From assembly GCF_963921235.1 (NCBI RefSeq), contig NC_086108.1, positions 91,762,001 to 91,826,000 of the forward strand: a DNA stretch of 64,000 bases, in the 5' to 3' direction. The position numbers and the translations under genes are program-made. A model generated the notes under the pieces. The model saw nothing but the letters and a program-made list of their open reading frames with translations, was not told the origin of the DNA and did no database searches. Of the stretch, positions 11,181-64,000 are shown piece after piece (position 1 is the first letter of the stretch; every line of letters starts with the position of its first letter). The stretch comes from Mobula hypostoma. Taxonomy: Eukaryota.

Positions 11181-11227
11181 TCATCATATGAGTAAAGACC
11201 ACTATTGCAGACAATACTCTAGGTGTA

Positions 11228-13480: not shown

Positions 13481-14713
13481 CAAAAGTTCACTTAAGACCA
13501 GTCAATCTGTCCACTCATGATTCCAAGCTCTAGAACTATGTGAGACAAATTTTATTAGTGAATACTCCCAGGCCAGAACAGCACGTAGAAGGAATGCATA
13601 TTAGGAAGTTGCACACAAAAGTCAATATATCGTGTGATTTTATAACCATGAAAACTAGTTGACGTTCAAGGATGGTAAATCCTGCAAGACCTGCTGAGTT
13701 GCAGATTTGAACCTGCACTCATACCAAGCACCACTTGCACCAAACTAATTCATAAAGTCTTCTCCAATATGTGTGGTTCTGTGCATTCATGTTGAATGGT
13801 TTCTTTATGTAATAAAATACATGGCTGATTTAATAATATTTAAGAAAAAGCAAAAGAGTCAAGACTCATTAATTACCAAAGAATGTATAAATTATACAAC
13901 CTTGAGATTTGCTTGCTCACGGGTAGCTACAAAACAAGAAGCCCAAAAGAACCCAAAGAAAAAAAAAGAATAAAAATAAAAATAAAAGACCAACACTCAA
14001 TGAGCAAGAGAAAGAAAAAAAAATCATGTAAACAATTAAAGCAAAGAGCAACAGTGTTCCGAACCAAAATTGAGTCCTCAGTTCTGAACCTCAGAGCAGC
14101 CCGGAGTAGGCCCAAAGCCTTGCTTATCAGTTCATCATATGAGCAGGTCGGAGCACAGCAGCCGGGATAGTCGTCATAGCTTCAGTGCCATGGAGACGAA
14201 AGCGAGTGAAGTCAGCTCTCATCTGGACCGACACCCTGTCTTTTCAGTCTGTCTGGGCAGGCAGAACAGTGAAAGTCAATGGCACCCTGCAGAAACGAGT
14301 GAAGATTATGCAGAGCAAGCGAAATTGGCTCTCACCTCCAATTTGGTCTGGCGTTTAAACTCTCTAAACAGCATATTGTACCTTGCACTAGGACCCAGGC
14401 ACCACAGCTGTGAAAGGCTCCTCACACTAGGACCCAGGCTCCGGTGCTGTGAAAGGCTCTGGGCCTAGACCACGCTGTCCAGCAACTCGTTCTGGGCCCA
14501 GATTCCATCGCCTGACTCACTTTCAAGGACTCTATAATTCATGATCTTAGTATTATTTAATCTATCTATTTATGTATGTATGTATGTATTGATTTATTAT
14601 TTGTGCTTTTTTTGTAATTGCACAATTTGTTTTCTTTTGGTTGGTTCTCAGTCTTTGTGTGTAAATTTTCAGTTATTCCATTGCATTTCTTTGTTTTACT
14701 GTGAAGTTCTGCA

Positions 14714-15583
14714 GAGTGGGCAAACTCATGGCAGATGCAATTTGAGTGGGCAAACTCATGGCAGATGCAATTTAATGTGGATAAATGTGAAGTTATCCAC
14801 TTTGGTGGCAAAAATAGGAAAACAGATTATTATCTGAATGGTGGCCGATTAGGAAAAGGGGAGGTGCAACGAGACCTGGGTGTCATTATACACCAGTCAT
14901 TGAAAGTGGGCATGCAGGTACAGCAGGCAGTGAAAAAGGCGAACGGTATGCTGGCATTTATAGCGAGAGGATTCGAGTACAGGAGCAGGGAGGTACTACT
15001 GCAGTTGTACAAGGCCTTGGTGAGACCACACCTGGAGTATTGTGTGCAGTTTTGGTCCCCTAATCTGAGGAAAGACATCTTTGCCATAGAGGGAGTACAA
15101 AGAAGGTTCACCAGATTGATTCCTGGGATGGCAGGTCTTTCATATGAAGAAAGACTGGATGAACTGGGCTTGTACTCGTTGGAATTTAGAAGATTGAGGG
15201 GGGATCTGATTGAAACGTATAAGATCCTAAAGGGATTGGACAGGCTAGATGCGGGAAGATTGTTCCCGATGTTGGGGAGGTCCAGAACGAGGGGTCACAG
15301 TTTGAGGATAGAGGGGAAGCCTTTTAGGACCGAGATTAGGAAAAACTTCTTCACACAGAGAGTGGTGAATCTGTGGAATTCTCTGCCACAGCAAACTGTT
15401 GAGGCCAGTTCATTAGCTATGTTTAAAAGGAAGTTAGATATGGCCCTTGTGGCTACAGGGGTCAGGGGGTATGGAGGGAAGGCTGGGTTCTGAGTTGGAT
15501 GATCAGCCATGATCATAATAAATGGCGGTGCAGGCTCGAAGGGCCGAATGGCCTACTCCTGCACCTATTTTCTATGTTTCTAT
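14714..15583 (+). mobile_element. Young 5'-truncated CR1 LINE, uninterrupted RT C-terminal ORF (14735-15493)
   Basis: 252-aa ORF nearly identical to the C-terminus of 42026-43513; 3' UTR and (TTTCTATG)n tail; 30-bp tandem duplication at the 5' junction. Confidence 0.95.
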
Positions 15584-16234
15584 GATAATGAACCTCAGAG
15601 TTGTATATGGTAATGTATACGTGCTTTGATAATAAATTTACTTTGAACTTTGATGCCTGCCCTGGTGTGGGACCAATTCTTTGGCTACATAGTGGAACCT
15701 GAGGTGAAACTTAGTTACTGTGGATACAGGAACTCAGAAATAAAAACAGAAAGTGCGGGAAACCCTCAGCAGCTCAGACAGCACTGCCATTTGCTGAAAG
15801 GTCCATAATCACACAGATTAGCTTCACTTCTGTCTCGACATCAGCTATCGGATCCACTGAGCATTTTCTGGTTTTGTATCTATGGTAACTTAGATTCACA
15901 GCACTGATTTTATTGGACATAGGACGGCAGTAACAGAAAATCACAACTCTGTTTTAAACTGGTTGTTGGTAGGGTCATAACTTCTTTGAACATCTGTTAG
16001 TCTAGTCTTTCTTGTACTAGCTTTTAATCCCTCTGAATGATACCAGTTACCTCCTGGACTTGTTTACTTATCAGGCGCTTTATCCTGCTTTGTCTGCTGT
16101 AAATTACAAGATGACCATTGTTCAAAAGCACTTGATTGGCACAAGCAGGTGATAATAGCAAATAATAAATGCAGACTTTGTGTGAAAGATAATGACTGAG
16201 CCAGAAATTATTACTGCGGTTCTATGACGAGCTG

Positions 16235-31099: not shown

Positions 31100-34093
31100 C
31101 TGCAAATAGGACAATGTACCTTCTCATTCAATGGCAGATAACTACAAGTTTTCTATATTAACAAGGTTATGATGGGCCATCAGATAGTCTCAAAATGCAT
31201 GCAACTTTGATTCTTATAGTGTTAACAGCTGATGTGATCAACAGAAAAATAAATCACACATAACCAAGTAAAAAGAACAAACAAAAAATAGAGCAACCTT
31301 TTTTCCCCCAAAGTCAGTAAAAGGAATTTTGTTTTTAAGAAAGTTAGCATTTCTTGTCCATAAAGACTAAAGAACCCCCAGATAATCAATTTATGTCCTC
31401 TGCTGCTTGCTGACCTTCCCTTCCCCAGTAAATGGATAGAATTATATAGAGTGATAGGATGCTTAAATCTATTGAAAATTGGCCTGCAAATGACTAATAG
31501 ATGGGAACACAGCATTTAGTAATAAGCACCAATCACAAGTCGTACCAAGAACAAAGCCAGCTTGTAAACTACAGTATCTGCTTTAAGAGCAATGTATCAC
31601 CAGTCTCATACTTGTCTTAATTTCAAAGACACATCAGCATCCATCAGTAAGTATCAAATTAAGTTTCAAATACACACCCATTTCTGTTTGTTCACTGGCA
31701 TGTTGGCTCTTGGAATTAATATCACAATGAACAGGAACTTCCCTTTTTATAGCTGCTGCCTCCCAGTCAGGCACCACAATGAAATACCTCACCCTTGATC
31801 AAGGGGTATAAAAACAGAGGCTCTTTTTCATGATATTTGCACAGTGGATCGTAATGGGTATCAAATAAATTTAAGCTGAGTGATACCCCTCCATTATAAG
31901 GAAGCTTTATGGTGTTATGGGGAAAAGACAGGTACTGTAGGTGGAGTCAAATCCGCAGCCAGATCAACCATGATCTTATTGACTGGAGGAGCAGAAGCAA
32001 CAGACCAGATGACCTGCTCCTGCTCCGAGTTCTTATGTAATTAATGCCAGAATCTTATATGTGAAATTGGTAACAGAAAGGTATTTATAAATCCTTTTAA
32101 AACACAAAACCTAAATAGTTAAAATTTTCTTTCCAAATTTTGCAACTTTCCATCTTTCATTAATTAATATCCAAATGTTGGTTAGCTGACATTGGCCTTA
32201 ATATTCAGAATTCTCTGTTTGTTACTTCGTGGCTTCCCAAACATCTGTATGCACAGAGCCCATCATTCATATAAATAGCCTGACATTGTCCAAACAATTC
32301 TGCTCTTCTTCTGCTGTGATCTTTATTATGTTTAATCTCAGCACCTTCACAACTACAGCAGAAAATTGACTGCTGATTAGCATAATTATTTCCAACCACA
32401 CGAAAGATGACATTCTGAGACCTCATTAATTTCAATCGTCTCATCTTTACTAGAAAATTAAATCGCAGTTTTAATTTTAAAAAGGGCAATATCTATCTTT
32501 CGTTATTCTGATTTTTAGAGTTTAACACATGCCAGTGGATAATTCACTGTAAACCTATCATGAGTTTATAAATATTCCAAATAATCTGCTGATCCTGGTT
32601 TTAAAATTAAATTTATAAATATATATGTAATATGTGTGTGTTATGAGTCACCAAGGCACGATTATTTCAGTAAGAACTGATATTAACTTTGAATCTTTCA
32701 AAGTTTATGTGTACCTTCCACCTGAAGTCACTTTCAAAATAATAATTTCTAAATGTCAAATACCTGATATAGAAAGGCAAATACACATAAATACAAGATC
32801 TATTTTCAAAACTGGTTGAGTGTACACACGGTTTCTAAAGCAAATGTTTTGCACCCCAAGCCTTTTTGCATTGAATGTGAATGGAAGACTCTTTTTGTGA
32901 TCCAGGTCTACGGGTCGCGGCAAACAATGGACAAGACGGACTTATTGTGGAACAGGGAGAAGGAAATACTTGAAATACAAAACAGATGAACAAGCAACTG
33001 TAAAGAGCAAAACCAGGCTAAAATTAAAAGCAGTGCTTACATCTTTGAATTGAATTAAACCAGAATTCCAAACATACTGAATGCGTTTATGGATTTGGAC
33101 TATGGACTATGGGCTTCTTCAGTTCTTATGCTTTTTATATTTTGTGTTTTTGTTTGCTCGTTCTTGTTGTTTTTAGTGTGGAGGGGTTTTGGGGGTTTGA
33201 GGTCCTTGCTGTGTTTTGTCTGGGGAAGGGGGGTTTAGTGGATTGATGCTTGTGTTGCCTTTTTTGTGCTTCTCCTCTTTGAGCTGACCTCCATTATCTC
33301 CTTTGTTTCATGGCTATCTGGAGAAGACAAAGTATGTACACTGCGTACATACTTTGATAATGAATCAACCTTTGAAACTTTTTTAATGTTCTTAAAACTG
33401 CATAAAGATGTCCACTGGCTTTTTAATAGATGCAGATCATGATAGCAGCTCCAGAGACTTCCTGCTAACTTTGGCTTTCTAACACAGTAGCACAGAGGGT
33501 CAGAGTTGTTGGTAAAAATATTAAACTTCATCAAATATTCTTTGCACTGGTTTTTGTTGTAAACAAGAACCAGTCTACAATTCTTAATGCAAATTGTAAG
33601 CAGTGATCAGTTTGAAGTTAAAAGCACAGCTTTACAAACAACTGTTATATATTACAGGCCCCTGATCAGCAATGTATGGGGAGTCTGGCTACTGAGAGAT
33701 GTGGCTTGCGAAGTGATGTGACAATGAGATTTGTCTACATTAGCCAAACACAGAATAATGGGATTATGTCACTTAGCACATAAAGCATGATTACAAAGTG
33801 GGATATTTGTGCACTCAGAGTCAGCCCTCACAGCATTAATTGTGGGTGCTTGGGATCTCTGTCACCAGAAGCTTTTAGATAGTCTGTATTAATTACTTTG
33901 TCCCAGCAAAGGCATCAGGAAAGTATCACATGCAGATGATGTCATCTAGTAAAAAAATTGTGCAGATATTAGAATGCATTGGGGGTTGTTGGGAAAGACA
34001 AGGAGACTGACAGAATGACAGGGTGACAGAAAGAAAAACTAGAATTCATTCCTCAACTTTCAGTTTTTGCGACAGACAACTCATTCATCTGCA

Positions 34094-34292
34094 CACAAAA
34101 TACTCTGCAGATGCTGGGGTCAAAGCAACATGTACAACACTCTGGAGGAACTCAGCAGGTCAGGCAGCATCCGTGGAAACAAACAGTCAACGTTTTGGGT
34201 CCTGACGAAGGGTCTCGGCCTGAAATGTTGACTGTTCATTTCCACGGATGCTGCCCGACCTGCTGAGTTCCTCCAGCATGTTGTGCATGTTG
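34094..34292. mobile_element. Miniature Penelope-derived hairpin insertion with 14-bp TSD
   Basis: ~75-bp inverted arms (~34124-34199 / ~34219-34294); CTCATTCATCTGCA at 34080-34093 and 34293-34306. Confidence 0.8.
34198..34235 (+). ncRNA. Minimal hammerhead ribozyme motif (CpG-decayed)
   Basis: GTC-CTGACGA-AGGGTCTCGGCCT-GAAA-TGTT-GAC; core CUGANGA/GAAA intact, GAAACGTC changed to GAAATGTT. Confidence 0.5.
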
Positions 34293-34587
34293 CTCATTCA
34301 TCTGCAACTCATTGATATGTTCTTTTAGTTCATAAGAATTGTACCCATTTGGAAATTGTTTGTAGCTTGTAAATATTTTGTAATTTATAAATAATTTATA
34401 AATCAGAGAATCATTTGACTATATTTAAATGTGAATAATTAAAAATAAAATAAACTGTGTTTAAACTACTTCATTAGCTGGTAGTATCTCGTTCTTGGTA
34501 GGGCAGGGAAACCCACCATTGACAGCTGACCTGTTACTTGTCCCATGAGTATCTCGTGAGCATGATGTAATTATCTCGTGATAATGG

Positions 34588-37936: not shown

Positions 37937-39614
37937 GTTTCAAAATTGGATTATTTTGAATGATCAGAACACACCAAAGTATTACAATTGCACAAGTATT
38001 TTCAGTTCAGGAAATGTACTATCAATTTCAAAAGGTAATAAAAAAATTAAAGTTTGAAATTCACTTATTTTATACATATCCTTACGCATATATATTAAAA
38101 TCCAATATCATGTTTAAAGTACTTACAATGTTAGATTGTTCTCTTGCACTAAAGATCGCATTACCATTCTCTTTAAACTGCTACTGAAATAAGGCAATAC
38201 ATTCTTGTATTATTTGCAAGCAGAGATTAAAGGTGAATTTGTCTTTTGTAGTTTAATGTTGCAGCTTCAGCTTGTCTGGAAATGTGGATAAGTAACCCTG
38301 TGGCAGCAGTGTTGCAGTCTGATAAGTAGACAATTCGATTCCCTATTAAATGCATTTTGACCCTTTGTGTTTCTTCAATTCTAAATTATGAGCACTTAAT
38401 GGTAATCCCTTCTATTACATTTAATAGAAAATGCATTTTTAAAACTGCCATAAAGTGATCATTTTAACTATGAAATAAATGCAGCAATGCAAATTTATGT
38501 TAAATGTGCTGTAATAGACACCTTATTTCGCATCAGGTCTAAAATATTCTGGGTAATGCTTGCTTCAGCTCCAGCTGTGTCATTGCCTTGTGACTGTCTA
38601 GACATGACTCTTATGATTAATGCATATGATGTCAGCATATGACAACATCAGTATTAACCCTTATGTTACTATAACAGTTACAATAATTTCATTTACTGAA
38701 TATGTTAATTCCAGATAAAGAACATTCAAGTAATGTCATCATGCTGAACTCCGCTTTATGCTTTGTGAAAATGCAGTGTCTTTTAAAAATCTAATAATTC
38801 ACCTTTTGTCCCACAACATCAGGCTCAAGAACAGTTATTACTCTTCATCGGGGTCCTGATTGGATAATTTCAATCACCTCAATGTCGAACTGACTTCAAG
38901 GAATCTACAACTCATATTCTCAGTAATTATTTATTGTTTGATTGATTAATTTATGTATTTGCTCAGATTGTCTTTTTTGCAAATTTCTTGTTTGTCAGTC
39001 TTTGTTCATGTGTAGTTTTTCATTGATTCTATTGGATTTCTTTGTTCTACTGTGAATGCCTGCAAGAAAATCAATCTCAGGGTAGTATATGGGGACATAT
39101 ATGTATTTTGATAATAAATTTACTTTGAACTATTTGAATTTCTGGGTAATTTGAAGTAAGCATTTCTTTTGAGAAGTGTATTCTCTAAATTGCTGGTCCA
39201 TTACTGCCCAGTAAGTAATCTTACTTAAATGTTAATGAAATTAAGATGTTCGCAAATACAGAAATCACCCCTTTTAAGCAGAAGTGACAATTCAACTCAA
39301 ATCCAATTCAGGATTTTATTTTACTTTACATACCTCCACTGTCTCTGTTTTAACATCCCAAGAAGTCATATTTCATCGAACAAAAGTAAGAGCAAAGAAT
39401 CACAATCCAAGGCACGTTTCCAAGTGAACAGATACTGAGCCCCATAAAATGGCAGAAAGTGAGGAGCAAAGACATTAACTGAAAGATAAATGTACCATCA
39501 TCTCCCAAAGCAAGTCATAGGTAAAATCGGAGAATGAAATCAGTATCATAATTATTTAAAAACTACGGAAAAAACTTTTTGGTGTTGTGAAGTTGATTTG
39601 AGGAGAGGGGCAGT

Positions 39615-40550
39615 ATGAGTGTGAGGGCAGTTTGCTGTTCTCGGTGTCGGATATGGGAGGCCCTGGAGTCTCCAAGCCTCCCGGACGTCTACATCTGCGC
39701 CAAGTGCATCGAGATGCAGCTCCTAAGGGACCGCGTTACGGAACTGGAGCTGCAGCTCGATGACCTTCGTCTGGTCAGGGAGAGTAAGGAGGTGATAGAG
39801 AGGAGTGGAAGGCAGGTGGTCACGCCGGGGCCACGGGAGGCAGACAAGTGGGTCACGGTTAGGAGGGGGAAGGGGAAAAGTCAGGTGATGGGGAGTACCC
39901 CGGTGGCTGTGCCCCTTAACAACAGGTACTCCTGTTTGAGTACTGTTGGGGGGGCTAGCTTACCCGGGGGAAGCGACAGTGGCCGTGCCTCCGGCACAGA
40001 GTCTGGCCCTGTAGCTCAGAAGGGTAGGGCAAGGAAGAGGAGGGCAGTTGCGATAGGGGACTCGATAGTAAGGGGGTCAGATAGGCGATTCTGTGGACGC
40101 AGTCCAGAGACCCGGATGGTAGTTTGCCTCCCTGGTGCCAGGGTCCGGGATATTTCTGATCGTGTCCAAGATATCCTGAAGTGGGAGGGTGAGGAGCCAG
40201 AGGTCGGGGTACATATAGGTACCAATGACATAGGTAGGAAAAGGGATGAGGTCCTGAAAGGAGAATATAGGGAGCTAGGAAGGGAGTTGAGAAAAAGGAC
40301 CGCAAAGGTAGTAATCTCGGGTTTACTGCCTGTGCCATGCGACAGTGAGAGTAGGAATGCGATGAGGTGGAGGATAAATGCGTGGCTGAGGGATTGGAGC
40401 GGGGGGCAGGGATTCAAGTTTTTGGATCATTGGGACCTCTTTTGGCGCAGGCGTGACCTGTACAAAAAGGACGGGTTACACTTGAATCGTAGAGGGACCA
40501 ATATCCTGGCAGGGAGATTAGCGGGGGCTACTGAGGTGACTTTAAACTAG
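39615..40550 (+). CDS. CR1 ORF1p: N-terminal Cys4 zinc-finger-like motif, coiled coil, SGNH/GDSL esterase domain
   Basis: Open 311-aa ORF: CSRC...CAKC; LRDRVTELELQLDDLR; SGNH blocks AIGDSIVR, CLPGARV, HIGTNDI, DGLHLN. Confidence 0.92.
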   Translation: MSVRAVCCSRCRIWEALESPSLPDVYICAKCIEMQLLRDRVTELELQLDDLRLVRESKEVIERSGRQVVTPGPREADKWVTVRRGKGKSQVMGSTPVAVPLNNRYSCLSTVGGASLPGGSDSGRASGTESGPVAQKGRARKRRAVAIGDSIVRGSDRRFCGRSPETRMVVCLPGARVRDISDRVQDILKWEGEEPEVGVHIGTNDIGRKRDEVLKGEYRELGRELRKRTAKVVISGLLPVPCDSESRNAMRWRINAWLRDWSGGQGFKFLDHWDLFWRRRDLYKKDGLHLNRRGTNILAGRLAGATEVTLN

Positions 40551-43513
40551 AATGGTTGCGGGGTGGGAATCAAATTAAAGAGGCTAGGCGTGAGGAGGTT
40601 AGTTCACAACAGAGGGATGGGAACCAGTGCAGAGAGACAGAGGGGTGTAAAATGAGGGTAGAAGCAAAAAGTACAAAGGAGAAAAGTAAAAGTGGCAGGC
40701 CGACAAATCCAGGGCAAGCATTAAAAAGGGCCACTTTTCAACATAATTGTATAAGGGCTAAGAGAGTTGTAAAAGAGCGCCTGAAGGCTTTATGTGTCAA
40801 TGCAAGGAGCATTCGTAATAAGGTGGATGAATTGAAAGTGCAGATTGTTATTAATGATTATGATATAGTTGGGATCACAGAGACATGGCTCCAGGGTGAC
40901 CAGGGATGGGAGCTCAACGTTCAGGGATATTCAATATTCAGGAGGGATAGACATGAAGGAAGGGGAGGTGGGGTGGCGTTGCTGGTTAAAGAAGAGATTA
41001 ACGCAATAGAAAGGAAAGACATAAGCCAGGAAGATGTGGAATTGATATGGGTAGAGCTGCGTAACACTAAGGGGCAGAAGACGCTGGTGGGAGTTGTGTA
41101 CAGGCCACCTAACAGTAGTAGTGAGGTCGGAGATGGTATTAAACAGGAAATTAGAAATGTGTGCAATAAAGGAACAGCAGTTATAATGGGTGACTTCAAT
41201 CTACATGTAGACTGGGTGAACCAAATTGGTAAAGGTGCTGAGGAAGAGGATTTCTTGGAATGTATGCGGGATGGTTTTTTGAACCAACATGTTGAGGAAC
41301 CAACTAGAGAGCAGGCTATTCTGGACTGGGTTTTGAGCAATGAGGAAGGGTTAATTAGCAATCTTGTCGTGAGAGGCCCCTTGGGTAAGAGTGACCATAA
41401 TATGGTGGAATTTTTCATTAAGATGGAGAGTGACATAGTTAATTCAGAAACAAAGGTTCTGAACTTAAAGAGGGGTAACTTTGAAGGTATGAGACGTGAA
41501 TTAGCTAAGATAGACTGGCAAATGACACTTAAAGGATTGACGGTGGATATGCAATGGCAAGCATTTAAAGGTTGCATGGATGAACTACAACAATTGTTCA
41601 TCCCAGTTTGGCAAAAGAATAAATCAAGGAAGGTAGTGCACCCGTGGCTGACAAGAGAAATTAGGGATAGTATCAATTCCAAAGAAGAAGCATACAAATT
41701 AGCCAGAGAAAGTGGCTCACCTGAGGACTGGGAGAAATTCAGAGTTCAGCAGAGGAGGACAAAGGGCTTAATTAGGAAGGGGGAAAAAAGATTATGAGAG
41801 AAAACTGGCAGGGAACATAAAAACGGACTGTAAAAGCTTTTATAGATATGTAAAAAGGAAAAGACTGGTAAAGACAAATGTAGGTCCCCTGCAGACAGAA
41901 ACAGGTGAATTGATTATGGGGAGCAAGGACATGGCAGACCAATTGAATAATTACTTTGGTTCTGTCTTCACTAAGGAGGACATAAATAATCTCCCAGAAA
42001 TAGTAAGGGACAGAGGTCCAGTGAGATGGAGGAACTGAGCGAAATACATGTTAGTAGGGAAGTGGTGTTAGGTAAATTGAAGGGATTGAAGGCAGATAAA
42101 TCCCCAGGGCCAGATGGTCTGCATCCTAGAATGCTTAAGGAAGTAGCCCAAGAAATAGTGGATGCATTAGTGATAATTTTTCAAAACTCGTTAGATTCTG
42201 GAATAGTTCCTGAGGATTGGAGGGTGGCTAATGTAACCCCACTTTTTAAAAAAGGAGGGAGAGAGAAACCGGGGAATTATAGACCGGTTAGCCTAACGTC
42301 GGTGGTGGGGAAACTGCTGGAGTCAGTTATCAAGGATGTGATAACAGCACATTTGGAAAGTGGTGAAATGATTGGACAAAGTCAGCATGGATTTGTGAAA
42401 GGAAAATCATGTCTGACGAATCTCATAGAATTTTTTGAGGATGTAACTATTAGAGTGGATAGGGGAGAACCAGTGGATGTGGGATATTTGGATTTTCAAA
42501 AGGCTTTTGACAAGGTCCCACACAGGAGATTAGTGTGCAAACTTAAAGCACACAGTATTGGGGGTAAGGTATTGGTGTGGGTGGAGAATTGGTTAGCAGA
42601 CAGGAAGCAAAGAGTGGGAATAAACGGGACCTTTTCAGAATGGCAGGCGGTGACTAGTGGGGTACCGCAAGGCTCAGTGCTGGGACCCCAGTTGTTTACA
42701 GTATATATTAATGACTTGGATGAGGGAATTAAATGCAGCATCTCCAAGTTTGCGGATGACACGAAGCTGGGTGGCAGTGTTAGCAGTGAGGAGGATGCTA
42801 AGAGGATGCAGGGTGACTTGGATAGGTTGGGTGAGTGGGCAAATTCATGGCAGATGCAATTTAATGTGGATAAATGTGAAGTTATCCGCTTTGGTGGCAA
42901 AAATAGGAAAACAGATTATTATCTGAATCGTGGCCGATTAGGAAAAGGGGAGGTGCAACGAGACCTGGGTGTCATTATACACCAGTCATTGAAAGTGGGC
43001 ATGCAGGTACAGCAGGCAGTGAAAAAGGTGAATGGTATGCTGGCATTTATAGCGAGAGGATTCGAGTACAGGAGCAGGGAGGTACTACTGCAGTTGTACA
43101 AGGCCTTGGTGAGACCACACCTGGAGTATTGTGTGCAGTTTTGGTCCCCTAATCTGAGGAAAGACATCTTTGCCATAGAGGGAGTACAAAGAAGGTTCAC
43201 CAGATTGATTCCTGGGATGGCAGGACTTTCATATGAAGAAAGACTGGATGAACTGGGCTTGTACTCGTTGGAATTTAGAAGATTGAGGGGGGATCTGATT
43301 GAAACGTATAAGATCCTAAAGGGATTGGACAGGCTAGATGCAGGAAGATTGTTCCTGATGTTGGGGAAGTCCAGAACGAGGGGTCACAGTTTGAGGATAG
43401 AGGGGAAGTCTTTTAGGACCGAGATTAGGAAAAACTTCTTCACACAGAGAGTGGTGAATCTGTGGAATTCTCTGGAATTCTGTGGAATTCTGTGGATCTG
43501 TGGAAACAGTTGA
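40541..43513 (+). pseudogene. CR1 ORF2 (APE endonuclease + reverse transcriptase), broken by a +1 and a -1 indel and a C-terminal tandem expansion
   Basis: APE motifs VNARSIRNK, GITETWL, YRPP, MGDFN, SDHNMV (40556-41797); RT motifs YRPVSLTS, QHGF, LDFQKAFDKVPH, GVPQGSVLGP, FADD (42026-43513). Confidence 0.95.
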
Positions 43514-45650: not shown

Positions 45651-47574
45651 TTCCTAAATAATTACGCAATATTACACTTAAGAATTGATATATCTTGGCA
45701 TAATACAGCCAAACAAAATGATCACTGTTTTGGTTTGCTATGTTCATGGGTATTCATGTATGGTTGAATGATAATTAAACTTAAACTTGATTGCTTGTCT
45801 AAAAGCCAATGACCTGATCTTCCTTTAAACTGAATTGTGTAAGAATTAACCTTGATATTGCTTTAAACGAAATCAAATGCAAGAGTTCTTACTATTTAAA
45901 TTTTGTTTGTCCTTTAATGAGACTGATCACTTGATTGCTTACTTTGGAGGGATTTCCCTATAAGATCTAATTATAGAAGAGAAGTTATATTCAAACAATG
46001 TCTCAGAAATCAAATGGACATTTATTAGCCCAGAATATTGCTCTCTGGAGAAGTCTGTGCATTGCAGTTTAGCACACGGAAAGAAAGAAATGGTCAAACA
46101 AGGATGCAATTCTGGTAGAAGGAATGAGCAAAGGAATCTGTTGGAGCTCGCTCCCTCTTGATCAGGGTATGGGGAACATCAGCATTTCTGCTGCCCAATT
46201 TATGATTTTCTTTCATTCAGGGGTATCTGGAATACACTCCTAGACAAACCCAGAAATGTTAACAGAGAACCTTTCAAAGCCCAATGATGTATTCATTTCC
46301 AACCATTCTTGGCCATAGAGGTTCACTATCAGTCATTCCTGAAGTTATCTTCTTACTTTTCTGAAGTTATCTTCTTACTTTTATGGAAGGCAAGGCACAA
46401 TATAAGCAGTATGAGTAGACCCACTGGCAAGGATCTGTTTGGGGACTTGAAGACTCTTTTCTATCTTCCACAAAGACCAGTCTCAAAGCAGTCAAGATAA
46501 TATTACTTCCCCTCAAGCCAGAAGACAAGGCATGCTTCAAAGCTCTTTGGCAAACACAACTCCCGTTTCACTTGATAAATTGGTGTTTGGACTAACATAA
46601 GCAATAACTTGCTTGGAGAAGTTGAAGGATTTAGAAAGGAGTCAGGAAATATATTCTGCTGTGACCAAAACAGACAGAAGTCAGGGACAGAGAAATATAT
46701 TTGACAGAGATTGAAAGAATAAGGATTTATTGCAAAGAAAGCAAAGGTATGGATTAAATGGAATAAAAGAAATGGGACAAAAAGAGAAAAAAGACAACAG
46801 CTATAATTACATATATTTTGAAATACTTCTTGCATATGGACATAAACAATTAAAGTTGCAATAATTTAATTGTTTTTATTTGGAGCACATATAAACATTT
46901 GTATTACAAAATAATTGCATGAACCCCTTCTCCTTGCTACCATCAAAGAGGAGGTACAGGAGCCTGAAGACACACACTCAACATTTCAGAAACAGCTGCT
47001 TCCCCTCCATCATCAGATTTCTGAATGGACAGTGAACCGTAAACACTACTTCAATAATTCAGTTTTTATTAATATATTTTGCAATGTATTGCTGCCACAT
47101 ACAGTATCAACAAATTTCACGACATATGCTGTTGATAGTAAACCTGACTCTGATACTGAAATATGATTTCACCACAGCCCAGTTTGAATTCATCACTGTT
47201 CAGACTTTATCCTCATTTCAATGTGTTTGTGATCCTCAGAGAATATTCTTAAATTTAGGCAGTTGTAGATGCAAGGAAATTAGCTTTTAAAAGATTTTAT
47301 CAGTTTTTATTCCTGATATATAATTACAGGATGATTTTTCCCTTTTGCTGTATATGATTTAATCCAAGTGTTAAATTGATCTGCAAATGCAATTGGCACT
47401 TAGAGCCAAGCGTAACAGTGAAAGGAAAATGTTATATAGCATAGTGTACTTACACATTGAGCAGGAATGATGTCAATGTGTTTTTGGTCACAATGCTGTA
47501 CTAATGAAAAATACAAATACAATAGAGAAATACCATGGGGTCAAGCAGAACAGGGAGGTCTGAACAACAGGAAG

Positions 47575-48089
47575 AAGCCTGTCGGAGGAGCCACTCCTCA
47601 TATTCTGTCTGGGTAGCCTCCAAACTGATGGCATGAACATTGATTTGTCCAACCAGTGATTTCTCCCCATCCCCCTTCTCTCTTTTTCTATTCTCCATTC
47701 TGGATCCCCCATAAACTCCTTCCCTTCTCCTCACCTGCCCATCATCTCCCTTCAGTGCCCCTCCTTCTTCCCTTTCTCCCATGGTCCATTCTCCTCTCCT
47801 CTCAGATTCCTTCTTCTTCAGCCCCTTTGCCTCTTCCGACTATCACTCCCCAGTTTCTTACATCATTCCTCCCACCCTCACCCACTCACCTTCCCCCCAT
47901 CTGTTTTTACCTGTCGGCTGCCAGCTTGTATGCCCCCACCACCCCACATCCCAACATCTTCTTATTCTGGCTTCTTTCTCTTCCTTTCCATTCCCAAAAA
48001 AATTGTCTCAGCCCGAAACGTCGACTGTTTATTCCTCTCTATAGAGCTGCCTGACCTGCTGATTTCCTCAAGTATTGTGTGTGTGTGTG

Positions 48090-48124
<35 letters not shown>

Positions 48125-48170
48125 GCGTGGTGCTCTAGATATTCAGCATCTGCAGGAACTCTTGTGTTTA
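47575..48170 (+). mobile_element. Penelope-like element 3' fragment (end of GIY-YIG ORF + pseudo-LTR)
   Basis: 47585-47659 translates EEPLLIFCLGSLQTDGMNIDLSNQ* (PLE ORF terminus). Followed by a pyrimidine-rich UTR, a decayed hammerhead half GTCTCAGCCCGAAACGTCGACTG and a CAGCATCTGCAG tail. Confidence 0.8.
48076..48122. repeat. Interrupted (TG)n microsatellite
   Basis: Directly visible, within the PLE 3' end. Confidence 0.95.
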
Positions 48171-49059
48171 TAATATATTCTTCTCCTTTGAACCAAAAGA
48201 CTAGAGACTTCACATTTAGTAAGGCTTTGTGCATTCCATGGGGGATTGGGGAGACCTTGTCCTGGCTGGTCATCCCTACCACCATAATGTCTATTCATGT
48301 ATCAGAGAAGCAGGGCATCCTCTTGAATGGTCAGTGTCAGTTAAGCCCAACCAATTTCTCACAAGAATAGTCTATAGAGAAAAAAATGGTATTTTTGCTT
48401 TTGCTAAAATATTATCTAGTTACCATGTGTAAATACACTAATGAATTGATGTTGATTCAGCAAACTAATGCCTTATTCCCCTATTAAGAAACTGCCCCAA
48501 GTGCTCCATGCAGCGACATTTTAACATGTTTATTGGTCAAAGGAATCTCTTTGAATATAACCTTATTTCTGATTTACTAAGTAACTGATTACTGTACATT
48601 AAACAACACTTTTCTTCATAGTTTTTCAAAGTCATTTACATTTACAGGAGTTAAAACCAGTTTAATTACAGATGATGAACTAAACAAGTTAATTCAATCT
48701 TTTTGATAAAAACCTTCTTCAACAAGTTTATTGAAACTGCACTGCCACCATTCTAAAATATATCAAGGAATTTTCTATATCACAGAGAGCTATCTATTTG
48801 CATAGTTTTAATGTGAAATGCAAATTAATTTAATTGCAAGCTTTTTAAAGTCTTTTGTAGTTTTGGATAGGGTTTGTACCTGGATCACCAACAGGTTCCA
48901 AGTATCAATCTAGAACATAGTTACCATGATGTTCCAATTAAAAACCAGGAAGAGGTGGTTTATATCTACACAAACAGATAGATAACTGGGACTTATAAGC
49001 AAAGATGCAAGTCCCAAACTTTTACTCAGCTATTGCTAACCTTGAGACAACTGTACTCC

Positions 49060-49490: not shown

Positions 49491-51275
49491 CCACCAATAG
49501 ACAACCCTTTACGAGAACATCATACTCAACTCGAGTGATCACACTACTATCACAGATACTTGCTGAAACTTCAACTCAACTGTCTCATGAATTTCAACTG
49601 CAAGAAATGACTACTAGGTAATTGCCTTTGTTGAACTTTAATTGAGCTAATGAACATGTATATTAATTGTTTTATAGTATTTTAAATTGATTTTAAACCA
49701 TTAATAAATAAAATTAATATTTTATGATAATGTGCAAATGTTTGTGAATTTCAAAGATGTTCAGAAGCTTTCAGTGATTTGTTTTGACAGCTGGTAGGTA
49801 GGGGTGGGGACTTGACTTGCAAAACAACCTTTGGGGTGGAGCCTGGTAACTTCCTTGTAAAGGATGCTGAACTTTTCTAGGCTTTTCCAATTAAGTTGCA
49901 GGCAGCTTCCCAGCAGAAGACTGTGCCTCCAGTTAACACTGAACTTCAAGACCTTGGCTTGCCTGCTGTTGTGCATAATACCAGGGCCCCCGTTCCTATT
50001 GCAGAGTTGACATCTGCCCAATTGTTCCAATGCTAATAATCTCCTCAAGATGAGGGCGGAGAGATACCTGACTCAATTGCAGGCAAATGTGTGCAAACCA
50101 GTGGCTTTGATGAGAAAACGTTTGATCTCAATCACGTTTGATGGACACAGGTGGCATGTGGGAACTCCTCAGATGTTAATTTGACCACCTTGCCTTGCTT
50201 GGAAACAAGGAAGTTTATTATAAATTACCTTCTGTACCATAGATTATGAGTGCCCCCTTCTGGTTAATAGCCTTAATAAATTGTTCATTCTACACCATTC
50301 AAAAAGTACACTTAACTTCAACTCATGTGAAGTAAATAAGTAGCAGGCAGTTTGTCCTAAGAAAAAATTATTTGAGGTTGGAAAAATGAATGCAATTATC
50401 TAACAATGTGCACTTTAAAAAGGCCTTCAGCTATAATTACAACTATATTATTTACAGCCCAACCCATCGCAGGAAAAGCCCACCTACCATTAAGTACTTC
50501 TAAACAGAGCACTGCCACAAGAAAGCAACATCCATCATCAAGGACCTCCACCATCCAGGCCATTTTCCCTTCTGCAACACACACACAAAATGCTGGAGGA
50601 ATTCAGCAGGCCAGGCAGCATCTACGGAAAAGAATAAACTATCAATGTTTCAGGCTCAGATGCTTTCTTCTTCCTGCTATCATCAGGCAGAAGGTACAGT
50701 ACATGAGCCTTAAATACCAGGCCACCAGTTTCAGGAACAGTTATTACCCTTCAACCATCAGGCTCCTGAACCAGCATACTCAACTCAACTCTGAACTGAT
50801 TCCACAACCTTCGGACTCATTTTCTAGAAACCTACTATTTAGTTTTATTTATTTATTATTAAAATGATTTGTTATTTTTGTATTTGTAGTTGCCTTCTTT
50901 TACACATTGGTTGTTCGACAATCTTTGTGCGTAGTTTTTCATTGCTTCTATTGATGGGTACCACGGTAGAGTGCCCAATGCTGGAAGTCCAGAGTCATCC
51001 ACACAAAATGGTGGAGGAACTCAACAGGTCAGGCTGCATTTATGGAAAGGAATAAAGAGTCAACATTTCAGGCCGAGACCCTTCATTCCTTTCAATAGTT
51101 CGCACAACCAGTGTTGCCATATTTATCTGATTTACTTCCATCAAAATAGTAAGCTGAGGTAAGTTTTTCACTTATTGTTCTTTAGTTCACTGCGCTATTA
51201 GTTAAATAACAATTTTATGTATTTTAAACCATTTGTTTCATTGATATATTTTTTGCAAATGTCTCTGATTATCAG

Positions 51276-51407
51276 ACAGGTTTGAAGTAATGAAGGGGTT
51301 AGAGGCTCAGACTGCAAAGCCTGTTGCTGACTCACTGCTCACACACCGCTGTGCTTTGCAGAATGAGTGTGCCCTTAAGGTTGTTGACAGCTGCACGAAA
51401 GACGAGT
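51276..51407 (+). CDS. Candidate internal coding exon of an unidentified host gene
   Basis: Unique sequence with higher GC than its flanks. Acceptor gattatcag| (alternative acag| at 51279), donor T|gtgagt; 132 nt, phase 1-1; peptide xRFEVMKGLEAQTAKPVADSLLTHRCALQNECALKVVDSCTKDE. Could extend to 51440 (..CEYSMDCDNCK, AAG|gcaagg). Confidence 0.5.
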
Positions 51408-51582
51408 GTGAGTACAGCATGGATTGCGACAATTGCAAGGCAAGGTCATGGTCAGACCTTGTCGCTGTCTCTTTAACTCCATCTTTAGATGCATTCGCAA
51501 ATGTTTCAAAAACATTTTTAGTTTTTATATTGCCCTTTATCTTTAATTGTCTATATTTTCCTGCAAAGATAAGACAACTAAA

Positions 51583-52228: not shown

Positions 52229-53026
52229 AAAAAAAATAATTTCAGGGCGACGAATGGCAATTTTCTACTCTCCCTCCTGCACCTCAAGAGATTTAAGGAT
52301 CAGTCGTAATACCATGCTGGACTTCTACTAATGCTGATAAAATTAAACTGATCCTGAAAGTTCTGGTAATCTCATCCTTCTTACAGTCAAATGGGATAAG
52401 GTCTTGTTGCCTCATGAAAATCAGTCCAGTGATGACAAAAGGACACACCTCAGCAATGTGAATCAATTATGATAGCATAACGCAATAAAGCCTTGTATTT
52501 ACATAAAGCCGTTTACAACCTCAGGACATCTTGAAGCTGTTTACAGACAAACGTTTGAGGCATAGTTACAGACAGAGTGTAACAAACAGATAGCAATTTG
52601 TACACAGCAGACATCCACCAAAACCAATATAATAATGACCAGATAATCTGTGTATTTAGTCAGGGGTAAATATTTGTCCTTCCCTGAGAATCATTAACTC
52701 AGAGGAATTCACGACACAGAAGTGAACCTTTCGGCCCAGTTTCTCAATGCCAGCCCAAAACAACCGGTTTATCCTGCTCTTGCTCTGCAGGTTACAGCTC
52801 TTCAAACTCTTTAGCTGTGGTGAAGGTTTCTGCCTGCACCACACTCTCAGGTTCTGAGTATCAGGACCCTACCTCTCATCGAGTGAATTAACTGTTTCAT
52901 TTCTTCCCTTTAATCCTTTTACCAATTAAAAATCCAATCTCTCTACTTAGGGAAAATGGTCCTTACTGTTTACATAAAAGTTGCTGGTGAACGCAACAGG
53001 CCGGGCAGCATCTCTAGGAAGAGGTG

Positions 53027-53064
53027 CAGTCGACGTTTCAGGCCGAGACCCTTCGTCAGGACTA
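53027..53064 (-). ncRNA. Minimal type I hammerhead ribozyme motif
   Basis: Minus strand: UAGUC-CUGACGA-A-GGGU(CUCG)GCCU-GAAA-CG-UC^GACUG. Stem I UAGUC/GACUG, palindromic ACGU helix III, GUC cleavage triplet. Confidence 0.75.
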
Positions 53065-53502
53065 ACTGAAGGAAGGGTGAGTAAGGGATTTGAAAGTTGG
53101 AGGGGGAGGGGGAGATCCAAAATGATAGGAGAAGACAGGAGGGGGAGGGATGGAGCCAAGAGCTGGACAGGTGATAGGCAAAAGGGGATACGAGAGGATC
53201 ATGGGACAGGAGGTCCGGGAAGAAAGATGGGGGGAGGGGTACCCAGAGGATGGGCAAGGGGTATATTCAGAGGGACAGACTTTTTCTCCCTCTGTCCCTC
53301 TGAATATACCCCTTGCCCATCCTCTGGGTACCCCCCTTGTCTTTCTTCCCAGACCTCCTGTCCCATGATCCTCTCGTATCCCTTTTGCCTATCACCTATC
53401 CAGCTCTTGGCTCCATCCCCCCCCCCCCCCGTCTTCTCCTATCATTTTGGATCTCCCCCTCCCCCTCCAACTTTCAAATCCCTTACTCACTCTTCCTTCA
53501 GT

Positions 53503-53540
53503 TCGTCCTGACGAAGGGTCTCGGCCTGAAACGTCGACTG
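53503..53540 (+). ncRNA. Minimal type I hammerhead ribozyme motif
   Basis: UCGUC-CUGACGA(53508-53514)-AGGGUCUCGGCCU-GAAA-CG-UC^GACUG; predicted cut after 53535; one mismatch in stem I. Confidence 0.7.
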
Positions 53541-54104
53541 CACCTCTTCCTAGAGATGCTGCCCGGTCTGCTGCGTTCACCAGCAACTTTTATGTGTGTT
53601 GCTTGAATTTCCAGCATCTGCAGAATTCCTGTTCCTTACTGTTTACACTGTCTTGGCCTCTGACTATTTTGAAAACTTCATTTAAATGTCTCTTCAATGT
53701 TCCTTTCTCCAGAGAAAAACAAATCCATTGCTTATAACTAACATTCCCCAACTTCAGTAATAAAATCTCTGCATGGTCTCTAGTCCAATTTAGATTGAAC
53801 TATTAGATCTTCTACATTAACCAAAGAGAAAAGATAGGCCTAACATCTAACCTAAAGGACAACTCCTCTGCTAATAAAGTATTGCTATTACATTGACAGA
53901 TCAACTTTGTTTTGTGCTCGTCTGAAGAATGGGGCATTGACACAAGTTTTCTGTCCTGTGGGTGAGATTCTAACCAATGGAGAACTGCCAACTAACGTCC
54001 AGGTCAATTCAACCCAAGGTCAGACCTTGGGTCGAATTGGCCTGGGTAGAATTGCAGCTGTCAGATATTCATCACGCAATTTGTTTCAGACTGTTGTACA
54101 CCCT

Positions 54105-58480: not shown

Positions 58481-60887
58481 ACAATCACGAGCGTCCCTAA
58501 TGGGGCCAAGTATGGAGTGACTCTGGGTGATGTCTATCTCATTGACTTTGGCAATGTTATAATAGAGTATCCTGTACCTTGAACTCCAGAATTGGTACAA
58601 GGACGGGAAGCTTGGAACTATTGTTTGGATAGGTAAGGGGAGAGGAGTGAAACAGCTTGGATATGTTAACCAACATTTTCAGAAACCAACAGCAAGATTG
58701 GAAGCAGCAATGTAGTGAGTGGTAGGAGCTGAAAAGAGGAGCCAGTAAAGGAGTGAGTGAAGTATAGCAAGTTTAGTGTAGGGAAATAGATAAAGGATAA
58801 AGTGATAAAGTGAGGGGTGTAGTGTGGCAAAAGGACACAAAATGAGGGCAAGAAGAATCAAGGATTCAATGGTTCAGAGAATGTATACAGTATACAACCT
58901 GAAATTCTTACTTTTCACGGACATCCACAAAACAGAAGGAAAACTCCAAAGAATGAATGACGGAGAAATGTTTGAACCCTAAAGCCCTCCTTTCTTGCCT
59001 CCCACAGACAAGCAGCAGTAAAAGCATCAACGTGAGAAGAAGAGAATTAAACTTTCGCAGATGAACTGGAAGAAGTTGCTTTGATGCGGAAAAACCTCTG
59101 GCGCCGTCTTCAGTTCCTCCCGTTCCATTCTAGATTCTTTTCTAATGAAAGGCTAGTTGTCAGCCCCTATAGTTTCCATTAGTTATGAATGGAATTCAAG
59201 ATCCTCTCACCTCTGGTTTTTCCCATCATTCCTTTCTTTTACTTCAGTTAGCCAACCCCCAGATCTCAGTCTCTCTTCTTCACCTGACTGCCTCCTAAAT
59301 CAACTGACACCTGTCAGCCCAAAATCACAGGTAAAATCAGAATAGAGCAACTAATGGGACTTGTGAAAGATAAATCTTCAGGACTTGCCTGGTGTACAGT
59401 CAAGTATTAATAGAAGTGGGACTGGAAAATTGCAGAGGCATCAGCTATAATCTTCCAAGGCTCTCTTGTTCTGGGAATTGTGCTGTTAGAGGAGAAAATT
59501 ACGGATGCCAGCACATTTCTCCAGAAGGGTGGGAAAGAATAAAAGTAGGTAACTACAAGGCCGCCAGTTTAACAAGGAAGCTATGAAAATGCCACTGGAG
59601 ATAGAGTGACTGAGTACTTAAAACATGTTTAATCAGAAAAACCAGTGTAGCTTTCCTAAGAGTGAAGACTGAATTCCTCACTTCTAAGAATCTATTTTTC
59701 TGAGCATGTACTTCTTCTTAAGGTAAGATTCTGTATCCAGTTGACAACATCCACAATTTTGCACAGGGGCCATTCTCTGTTTATAGACCAACCAGTTATA
59801 TATCACACATGGCTGAGAATATTATTCAAAACAACCATCTGATCATTGATTTTTGCTTTACCAGAATTATTGTACCATACCAGTAAACTATCAGTAGTGA
59901 AACACGCATTGAGAAGTCACCAGGCGCTAGTGTCTGTTTACGATATGCTCATGTAGATTGAAGCAGACGCATGGCATTTTCACAGTGAATTCTCTGTCTG
60001 GCTCTGCTACTGCAGATCCTGTCAATACATGTTGGAAAACTCAGATGTGAATTGGACAAACATATGAATGTGCACAGCTCCATGCCTTTTTTCTCTGTCT
60101 GAAATTAGTTTGAGATGAAATGCCAGCTCCCTGCCCTATTGAAAGGTGCTGTATTTTCAAGGTCCTGTTTGTCTGCTCGGTTGAATGTTATAAGTCCTTC
60201 AGGAAGATAGTATTCTGAAGGCTCAGGTCAACAATGCCACATGCTTTGGTTTATCCAATCTGCCTCTGCAAAGATATCCCCAGCCTCTTTGTTTGGTGTC
60301 TAGTTAATTTCTGCTCGGGAAGAAAGCCTTTACAATTTGATTTTCCTGCTCTAGAAATGTATAATATATTATTCCTTTATATAATGATCTTGTGTTTTTT
60401 TAAATATGTGAAAGTTTCAAAAGAGAAGTTAATTATTCAGTCTTTGTCAACACGTACTCTCAACACAAGTAAATTCACCCACCCAGCTCCCTGATTCATT
60501 TGCCAAATAGTGTGGCGAAGGATACAAACGGTTCACAGGTTAAGGTCCTGAACTGGGACTAAGCAAATTTTGGAGCCATTAGTCAGGAGTAAATGGGGAG
60601 AGATTAGTTGCAAGGAAAGTAACATCTGCTAAGGGTCCAGGGTCTGCATGCTCCTGTTGGGGTAATGGCAGATTTCAGGGACCCTTGTTGATGAGAGATA
60701 TTGAGGCCCTTGTCAGATATTTGAGATAAAAAGAGGGAAACATGCACTGTGCATAAGCATTTGGGAACTAGAGAATCTCCGATTGACAAGAAATAAAGGA
60801 GTGCACTTAAGAGAGAAGTCAGGAAAGCAAAAGGAGGATATGACACTGATCTGGCAGGCAGGGTTGGTAAAATCCGAAGAGGTTCTA

Positions 60888-61866
60888 GTCATAGTCATAC
60901 TTTATTGATCCCGGGGGAAATTGGTTTTCGTTACAGTTGCACCATAAATAATAAATAGTAATAAAACCATAAATAGTTAAATAGTAATATGTAAATTATG
61001 CCAGTAAATTATGAAATAAGTCCAGGACCAGCCTATTGGCTCAGGGTATCTGACCCTCCAAGGGAGGAGTTATAAAGTTTGATGGCCACAGGCAGGAATG
61101 ACTTCTTATGACGCTCTGTGTTGCATCTCGGTGGAATAAGTCTCTGGCTGAATGTACTCCTGTGCCCAACCAGTACATTATGTAGTGGATGGGAGACATT
61201 GTCCAAGATAGCATGCAACTTGGACAGCATCCTCTTATCAGACACCACCGTCAGAGAGTCCAGTTCCATCCCCACAACATCACTGGCCTTACGAATGAGT
61301 TTGTTGATTCTGTTGGTGTCTGCTACCCTCAACCTGCTGCCCCAGCACACAACAGCAAACATGATAGCACTGGCCACCACAGACTCGTAGAACATCCTCA
61401 GCATCATCCGACAGATGTTAAAGGACTTCAGTCTCCTCAGGAAATAGAGATGGCTCTGACCCTTGTAGACGGCCTCAGTGTTCTTTGACCAGTCCAGTTT
61501 ATTGTCAACTCGTATCCCTAGGTATTTGTAATCCTCCACCATGTCCACACTGACCCCCTGGATAGAAACAGGGGTCACCGGTACCTTAGCTCTCCTCAGG
61601 TCTACCACCAGCTCCTTAGTCTTTTTCACATTAAGCTGCAGATAATTCTGCTCACACCATGTGACAAGGTTTCCTACCGTAGCCCTGTACTCAGCCTCAT
61701 CTCCCTTGCTGATGCATCCAACTATGGCAGAGTCATCCGAAAACTTCTGAAGATGACAAGGCTCTGTGCAGTAGTTGAAGTCCGAGGTGTAAATGATGAA
61801 GAGAAAGGGAGACAAGACAGTCCCCTGTGGAGCCCCAGTGCTGCTGATCACTCTGTCGAACACACA
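60888..61866 (-). mobile_element. Young 5'-truncated Rex1/Babar LINE with open RT C-terminal ORF (61033-61863)
   Basis: STGAPQGTVLSPFLF, QKFSDDSAIVG, LQLNVKKTKELVVD, YKYLG, SFLPVAIKLYN; AATAAA and (TATGAC)n tail; TTCTA at both flanks. Confidence 0.92.
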
Positions 61867-63128
61867 TTCTATATTCTATAGATAAATTAAGAGTCAAAGG
61901 AGGGATAAGGTGAGAATAGTCCTCTCAAAGACCAACATGGCCATCTGCATTTAGAACCAAAAGAAATGGGAGAGATTTTTCACGAAAATTTCTCTCCTGT
62001 GTGGAGAAAATGATGGAAACTGGGGAGAAAATGGGGGAAATGAAAGGTGAAGTCTTTCACCACATACGGACTAGCAAGGAGGAGGTTTTAGAAGCTGTAA
62101 AGTGGACAAATCCTTAGGGCCAGACCTAGTGCATTCTCAGACCTTGTTAAAAGCTAAATAAGAAATGGCAGAGGCCCTTACAGAGCTTTTTGCTCCATAG
62201 GTGAGGCTTTGGAAGACTGAAGAGTGGCTAATGTGCTGCCATTGCTTTAAAAGTGTTGCAAAACCAGGCTAGGAAATTACAAGCAGTGAATCTAACATCG
62301 ATGGCAGGTAATTTACAGGAGTGGATTCTGCAAGACAGGATTTACCATCAGTTGGAGAGAGAGAATCCAATTCATGACAGTCAGCTTGATATGCACGGGA
62401 AGTTGTCTCTGGCAAATCTCTTGGAGTTCTTTGAGGAAGTAACTAAGAAACTAGACAAGGGCAAGGCATTGGATATTGTCAATAAGTACTTTGGAAGGGC
62501 CTTTAATTAGGTCTCTCTTGTAGGCTAGAAGGTTAAATTGCATAAGATCCGGGGAGATAGCGGACTGGATTCGTAAGTAGCTTAATAGTGGGAAGCGGAG
62601 GATGATGGTTGAGGAGAGCCACTGTGGTCAGTGCTGGTACCTTTGATTCAAGGCATGGTTAGCACATTTGCGGATGTTACTAAAATAGGCGATGTTGTTG
62701 ACAGTGTAGAAGGTTATGAAAAATCACAGGGGGATATTGATCAGCTAAGTACGTACGCAGTGAACATACAAACTCCTTACAGACAGTAGTGGGAATTTAA
62801 CCTCGATCACTGACACTGTAAAGTGGTATGCTAACCACCACGCTACCATGCCACCTTAGGACCTAAGGTCTAGATCGAGGAATGCAAGTGCATAATTCAC
62901 TGAAAGCAGCATCACAAGTAGATGGGATGATGAAGAAGTCATTCCGTATGCTGGTCTTCATCAGTCAAGGTCATGAGTTTAGGCTTTCAGTTCAGATAAA
63001 TGTGAGGTTTGCATTTTGGGATATTAATCCAGGTTAGTACTTGTACAGTGAATGGTAGGGCACTGGGGAGAATTATGGAAACGATAAAATAGAGTAGCTT
63101 TATTTGTCACATCTTTTCGAAACATGCA

Positions 63129-63432
63129 GTCATAGTCATACTTTATTGATCCCAGGGGAAATTGGTTTTCATTACAGTTGCACCATAAATAATTAAATAG
63201 TAATAAAACCATAAATAGTTAAATAGTAATATGTAAATTATGCCAGGAAATAAGTCCAGGACCAGCCTATTGGCTCAGGGTGTCTGACCCTCCAAGGGAG
63301 GAGTTGTAAAGTTTGATGGCCACAGGCAGGAATAACTTCCTATGACACTCTGTGCTGCATCTCGGTGGAATGAGTCTCTGGCTGAATGTACTCCTGTGTC
63401 CATCCAGTACATTATGTAGTGGATGAGAGACA
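63129..63432 (-). mobile_element. Short Rex1/Babar 3' fragment (same family as 60888-61866) nested in a minus-strand V-SINE (~63090-63683)
   Basis: Near-identical to 60890-61200; V-SINE sequence flanks both sides. Confidence 0.9.
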
Positions 63433-64000
63433 TCATTTGTGATACATAGTGAGATACATCATTTTGGGTCAATGACCAACACAGTCCAAGGATGCGCCGG
63501 AGGCAGCCTACAAGTGTTGCCACGCTTCCAGCACCCACACAGCAAGCCCACAACTTACTAAACCATGTGAGCATCTGGAGGAAACCCATGTGATCAAGGG
63601 GAGAACATACGAACTCCTTACAGACAGTAGTGGGAATTTAACCTCGATCACTGACACTGTAAGTGTTATGCTAACCACTATGCAGGACCTAAGGTCTAGA
63701 TCTAGGAATGCAAGTGCATAATTCACTGAAAGCAGCATCACAAGTAGATGGGATGACGAAGAAGTCACTAGGTACGCTGGTCTTCATCAGTCAAGGTCCT
63801 GAGTTCAGGAGTTAAATTGGAGGTGAGGCCACACTTGACTTATCGTTTACAGTTTTAGTCACCCTGTTAAAAGAAAGATGTTTTTAAACTACAAAGAGTG
63901 CAGAAAAGATTTACCAGGATGTCACCTGAACTTGGTGGCCCGAATCGCAAGGAGAAGCAGCAGAGACCAAGAGTTTATTCCCTGGAATGTTAGAGACTGA

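Follow-up and report, generated by a model that had tools for sequence, protein, structure and literature searches.

A probable one-off Penelope-like insertion carrying opposed hammerhead motifs in a hairpin of the Mobula hypostoma genome

A palindromic insertion of 658 bp, bearing a minimal hammerhead motif on each arm in opposite orientation, lies between two copies of a target-site duplication (TSD) in the genome of Mobula hypostoma, and raises the question of whether such a hairpin is the by-product of one retroelement insertion or a unit that propagates as an intact palindrome, and of how its two arms came to be joined. We analyzed it within the 64-kb stretch of DNA in which it was found (hereafter the window, 64,000 nucleotides), starting from a preliminary description that had placed a hairpin insertion at 52960..53647; the TSD, the arms, the tail and the motif were all found there.

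The window has a GC content of 38-45% in most bins and is rich in retroelement remnants, RVT_1 being present in three of the four proteins scanned. A nearly complete LINE-like element occupies 39597-43513, with frames of 317 aa and 420 aa followed by a 507-aa frame containing RVT_1, and related copies occur at 11173-12369 and 14705-15584. Two direct repeats of ~310 bp, 93% identical, were also observed at 60887-61199 and 63128-63433, the former overlapping the low end of an RVT_1 frame on the minus strand (61033-61875), as well as a small palindrome at 53999-54045 (23-nt arms, 91% complementary, 1-nt centre). An exon-like, cysteine-rich open stretch on the plus strand at 51270-51443 (55 aa tested) gave four homologue candidates, none at E<=0.001, and no Pfam family.

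The two TSD copies form an exact direct repeat of 15 bp on the plus strand, at 52960..52974 and 53633..53647, as originally claimed. This pair is the sole match of at least 10 nt among the offsets tested, and its 15-mer occurs exactly twice in the 64-kb window, for which a rough estimate of chance is ~5e-6. On the left, a tail-less inverted copy of the end of a repeat, likely a pseudo-LTR (pLTR), extends over 52972..53279 on the minus strand with its 5' truncation at the counterpart of 53291; the continuation of this copy also matches the last 3 nt of the left TSD. On the right, a direct copy of 353 nt, likewise 5'-truncated, extends over 53280..53632 on the plus strand and alone bears a tail, whose length of 37 nt (53596..53632, ending at the family boundary) corresponds to the ~37 nt reported at first. 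Aligned with the reverse complement of 53291-53595, the arm 52972-53279 is identical at 292 of 304 aligned bases, with 12 mismatches and 3 indels that add 5 gap columns (17 differing columns in total) and longest perfect runs of 62, 60, 44 and 31 bp; several of the differences fall in G/C runs. The arms agree with the ~305 bp first described, the "handful" of differences being somewhat exceeded by the 12 mismatches and 3 indels. The insertion contains no reading frame for a telomerase-like reverse transcriptase plus GIY-YIG endonuclease, as expected of a 3' remnant of 350 nt.

The unpaired centre of the hairpin (53280..53290, plus strand, 11 nt) had been taken for a separate spacer, a view that the assembled contigs do not sustain. 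Loose, TC-rich letters precede 53280 in 101 contigs of run X4 and 9 of run X9, and one X15 contig aligns over 53280-53382 starting at its own fifth letter. Because the contigs match from 53280 yet differ before it, the 11 nt are part of the right copy, as its extra 5' length, other copies extending into different upstream letters, and the joint to the left copy is blunt.

Each arm carries the minimal type-I hammerhead motif that had been announced for it, at 53505..53538 on the plus strand in the right copy (core 53508-53535) and at 53027..53064 on the minus strand in the left copy (core 53059-53032). The cuts are predicted after 53535, which matches the end of the right core and the site first proposed, and after 53032. 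In both arms the core reads CUGACGA-A-GGGU(CUCG)GCCU-GAAA-CG-UC^, with helices I and II in type-I order, a helix II of 4 bp, an extra nucleotide after position 9 (the A following CUGACGA) and a palindromic ACGU (15.2-16.2) in place of helix III. The attribution of stems I and II to both arms holds for the left copy, whose stem I has 5 bp including one U.G, and less well for the right one, with only 3 bp following a private change at 53504 (A at this position in 85% of X4 depth). The conserved G10.1-C11.1 pair is absent from both copies and from a further copy near 34 kb, which have G10.1.U11.1, a C being found in an older relative near 48010. A literature search on the effect of a G.U at 10.1-11.1 gave no paper.

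A degenerate pattern of the core matched four times in the window against 0.68 expected, a number reached in none of 100 shuffles, and three of the four matches are members of the repeat family of the hairpin; core patterns had no match in metagenome contigs, viral contigs or prokaryote genomes. The search with hammerhead models suggested at the outset left the motif unmatched, Rfam giving no family at gathering score over the whole window; within 52900-53700 and within 53485-53600, hammerhead families were absent even at E<=10. Sub-threshold matches to miRNA precursors were rejected as reflecting the long hairpin only, and a match to PrrB_RsmZ was rejected at 19.7 bits vs 44. Folds of the motif monomers were unremarkable (z of 0.26 and -0.81), and the cofold of two motif copies was uninformative, returning no hammerhead dimer fold. 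In all four runs aligned, diverged relatives align over 53027-53063 with loose ends before 53027 and behind 53063; since they align here and differ on either side, the ribozyme core is the conserved part of the repeat.

The stretch or part of it was contained in 20 of 24 runs, and the contigs of four runs were aligned to the locus at 88% likeness. Depth in X4 amounted to 4.4e5-8.4e6 in the bins of the element vs mostly 16-35 in those of the flanks; summed contig depth, which is no copy number, was 10^4-10^5 times higher over the arms than over the flanks, with a similar contrast in two other organisms. Run X15, possibly an RNA run, covers the repeat, but most of the flanks have zero depth in it, so that it carries no information on this locus. 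At the end of the tail, X4 depth fell from 7.4e6 (53587-53633) to 8.5e3 (53634-53680) and then to 26, while 413 X4 contigs continued with loose ends behind 53630 and 221 behind 53633. The sharp drop in depth behind 53633, where contigs diverge by the hundred, marks the tail end as a family boundary. Searching with the repeat unit, nhmmer returned seven hits at five places in the window, with differing 5' ends, and none in the reversed-window control; together with the depth and the joints described below, these hits form the set of dispersed, variably 5'-truncated copies expected of a Penelope-like element (PLE). Two short minus-strand remnants of this repeat end, at 50573-50665 and 50977-51086, begin inside the hammerhead core.

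The contigs yielded 778 reported joints, and among the 15 listed, 14 are cross-arm, all at different coordinates; the hairpin's own joint, 53279|53280, is collinear with the reference and therefore falls outside this count. Among those listed, the deepest joint is 53061>53507 (depth 918, five X4 contigs, also in X7), and 53061>53602 is present in three organisms. In all 14 listed cross-arm joints, one arm or both start close to the first core base, at -12 to +13 nt from it. These arm starts (53496-53521 and mirror) are situated at the 5' edge of the hammerhead, away from the predicted cut site, and may correspond to a stop of the reverse transcriptase or, possibly, to an alignment or ascertainment effect, other subfamilies aligning only there. 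No contig or joint bridging an empty site appeared among those displayed (15 of the 778 joints; organisms B and C have parts of the flanks).

Judged by its anatomy, the insertion is very likely the remnant of a PLE, although the searches linked no Penelope protein to the repeat. The host, which we take to be a cartilaginous fish, is of a lineage unlike Schistosoma. Opposite-strand pairs of minimal hammerheads (min-HHR) are shared with the pLTRs of metazoan PLEs in the available passages of PMC4209133 (Cervera and De la Pena 2014). There, the dual minimal hammerheads of Schistosoma lie on opposite strands at a distance of ~100-700 bp, and hammerhead motifs are reported in the fish elements Xena, Poseidon and Neptune. 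Compared with the Schistosoma motifs of these passages, helix II has 4 bp instead of 7-8 bp, and a G.U replaces G10.1-C11.1, a pair there called highly conserved, as a recurring feature outside the descriptor of the study. The inverted-hammerhead-pair arrangement has therefore already been published, and supplements may hold closer examples from fish.

The overall organization of the insertion also has precedents. An inverted 5'-truncated copy and a 30-40-bp tail on one end are presented as typical in parts of PMC8557442, and parts of PMC3846280 describe inverted pLTR units flanked by TSDs of 8-10 bp. The present locus combines three features of an EN+ PLE insertion, namely an inverted 5'-truncated partner, a tail of this size class at one end (37 nt) and a TSD, and the one-end tail recurs in the 34-kb hairpin. 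Head-to-head copies, a TSD and heavy 5' truncation are thus shared with EN+ insertion units as described in passages of PMC8557442, PMC3846280 and PMC8969392, where the one-sided tail measures 31 bp in Pen2a_Av; relative to the rotifer units of these passages, both copies are too short here for an ORF, and the TSD has 15 bp instead of 8-10 bp. The preliminary reading of a protein-free, TSD-flanked single insertion with PLE anatomy is borne out by the hammerhead, the inverted 5'-truncated partner and the one-sided tail.

A further counterpart is PAc, the Poseidon of Anolis carolinensis, in which the hammerhead is located just upstream of two reverse transcription start sites bounding the tail, according to passages of PMC11167929; in the Mobula hairpin, the two copies end 60 and 97 nt downstream of the predicted cut. 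Unlike PAc, the hairpin is devoid of protein. Non-LTR retrozymes, which are non-coding, carry type-I hammerheads, have a proposed origin in PLE pLTRs and are reported in the one cartilaginous fish sampled (bioRxiv 10.64898/2026.07.22.740005, in part), consist of head-to-tail tandem arrays with at least two ribozymes on the same strand. We rejected this identity, since the two copies face each other head to head, so that each transcript has a single sense ribozyme, and same-strand tandem hammerheads are lacking. Neither this family in cartilaginous fishes nor a self-propagating Penelope hairpin family was found in the literature searched, whose scope left most subscription papers and Repbase outside. 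We consider with high confidence that the locus results from a one-off Penelope-type insertion.

A second hairpin, formed by an older relative, offers a comparison within the window. It covers 34080-34306 including its own 14-bp TSD, the insertion itself (34094-34292) having 199 bp, with 70-nt arms identical at 63 of 70 positions, a tail on the left arm, a turn at the 5' edge of the hammerhead and a core decayed to GAAA-UG-UU. The left arm corresponds to 53525-53626 of the sense copy and the right arm to 53505-53601; because each thus has sequence that the other lacks, neither simply duplicates the other. At 47564-48160, a short reading frame is followed by an old, tailed copy of a related pLTR in direct orientation. 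Alignment of the unit to 47600-48200 scored 175.5 vs a shuffle maximum of 149, only the 3' part being convincing (nhmmer E 3e-7). The 31-aa open stretch at 47564-47656, which in our view resembles the end of a GIY-YIG endonuclease, matched no Pfam family and had no atlas hit; its lone match among 1.84 billion proteins was spurious (P0001, a short-repeat protein).

As to the origin of the palindrome, we favour, with moderate confidence, a one-off and now dead Penelope-like insertion made by double priming of both nicked target strands. The element protein would nick the two strands 15 nt apart and each 3' end would prime reverse transcription on element RNA, one cDNA beginning at an outer start site and so acquiring the tail, the other ~37 nt further in and so lacking it. 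Both cDNAs would stop early, at ~350 and ~305 nt, their ends would be joined bluntly and repair would fill in the duplication. At the centre of the 53-kb hairpin the primer-template pairing is 0/5, and 3 nt are common to the left TSD end and the unit. Together, the two hairpins of the window point weakly to two independently primed cDNAs. In passages of PMC11167929, PAc cleaves and extends both target strands in vitro, starts reverse transcription at two sites bounding the tail and is predicted to be dimeric; the same passages contain no double-priming proposal for inverted copies.

The same one-off insertion might instead have been produced by fold-back, a possible though doubtful route in which a tail-primed cDNA stops at 53280, turns with an 11-nt loop and copies itself, an endonuclease then resolving the product at the inner tail boundary. 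Such an origin would agree with the fact that the loop belongs to the tail-bearing copy, which fully contains the tail-less arm, and with parts of the literature, as PMC3846280 reads junction palindromes as self-priming and PMC8557442 assigns the tail to endonuclease resolution, in the passages available. It is also compatible with the rare variant common to both arms (C at 53564 and at the mirror position, against T in 98% of X4 depth), although this variant points to one template lineage and fits either priming route. Fold-back is opposed by the 0/5 pairing at the supposed primer end and by the 34-kb hairpin, in which, barring subsequent changes at its centre, neither arm can have arisen by self-copying from the other. 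A later deletion at the centre of a palindrome could also give an asymmetric centre, which could blur this test.

Beyond these two routes, the hairpin could belong to a non-autonomous family in which the 658-nt palindrome is transcribed and re-inserted whole by Penelope proteins acting in trans. The unit is complete, flanked by a TSD and retains its tail, some other joints are tens of times deeper than the flanks and are found in two or three organisms, and pLTRs can mobilise passenger DNA in trans, non-autonomous Chlamys elements being known (passages of PMC3846280 and PMC8557442). Nevertheless, no joint dominates among the 15 listed of 778, against an element depth in the millions, 101 X4 contigs have different letters upstream of the centre, the two hairpins of the window differ in their junction and in the side of their tail, and a 300-bp duplex would presumably be a poor template for reverse transcriptase. 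Such a family is improbable, and of the two possibilities first raised, by-product or self-propagating family, the many different junctions and the unlike 34-kb hairpin favour the former, as a recurrent by-product. We hold it equally improbable in general that Penelope hairpins re-mobilise as intact palindromes, a retro-transposed counterpart of MITEs whose antisense arm shuts off the ribozyme; if they did, those joints whose depth is tens of times that of a single copy, and which occur in more than one species, would represent founder hairpins that have spread.

Co-option as a regulatory RNA of a neighbouring gene, either as dsRNA for Dicer or ADAR or as a switchable ribozyme, appears very improbable: read-through transcription would give an RNA with an almost perfect duplex of ~300 bp, and an exon-like stretch lies ~1.5 kb upstream on the plus strand, but the right stem I is degraded, 12 substitutions and 3 indels have accumulated between the arms, the candidate exon has no homologue or Pfam match and such hairpins are common in the genome. 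An assembly artefact from a fold-back read is hardly credible: although the element is not covered in full by any listed contig and its central joint does not appear in the pieces shown, the flanks are unique and different, the TSD is exact, the tail is one-sided, the arms differ at 17 columns, X4 contigs cross both the left (52600-53000) and the right (53611-54000) flank junctions with 0 differences, each reaching less than 31 letters beyond the TSD, and another hairpin, independent of this one, is bounded by a TSD of its own.

Whatever the priming route, the hairpin is predicted to mask its ribozymes, as supposed initially. On one strand the full hairpin would fold at ~-624 kcal/mol and on the other at ~-633 kcal/mol, every core base being paired with the opposite arm, and the computed pairing probability of stem II in this context rounds to 0 at six decimals. 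A read-through transcript in either direction would have its antisense arm made first, and would contain only one sense ribozyme, hence no dimer partner in cis. With its core paired to the other arm and no cis dimer, the sense hammerhead would be locked in duplex, and the locus is predicted to be non-cleaving and silent as a ribozyme. In passages of PMC4209133, single minimal hammerheads are inactive in vitro and dimers weakly active, and in those of PMC11167929 the PAc ribozyme cleaves only with the element protein, while insertion in vitro proceeds without the ribozyme.

By itself this hairpin locus matters little, being one of very many remnants of a kind already described. Its value is modest and lies in the data it adds on how Penelope-like elements form inverted copies and tails. 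A large population of TSD-flanked hairpins in this genome would allow double priming to be tested by counting, and intronic hairpins of this kind would constitute a putative standing source of long dsRNA.
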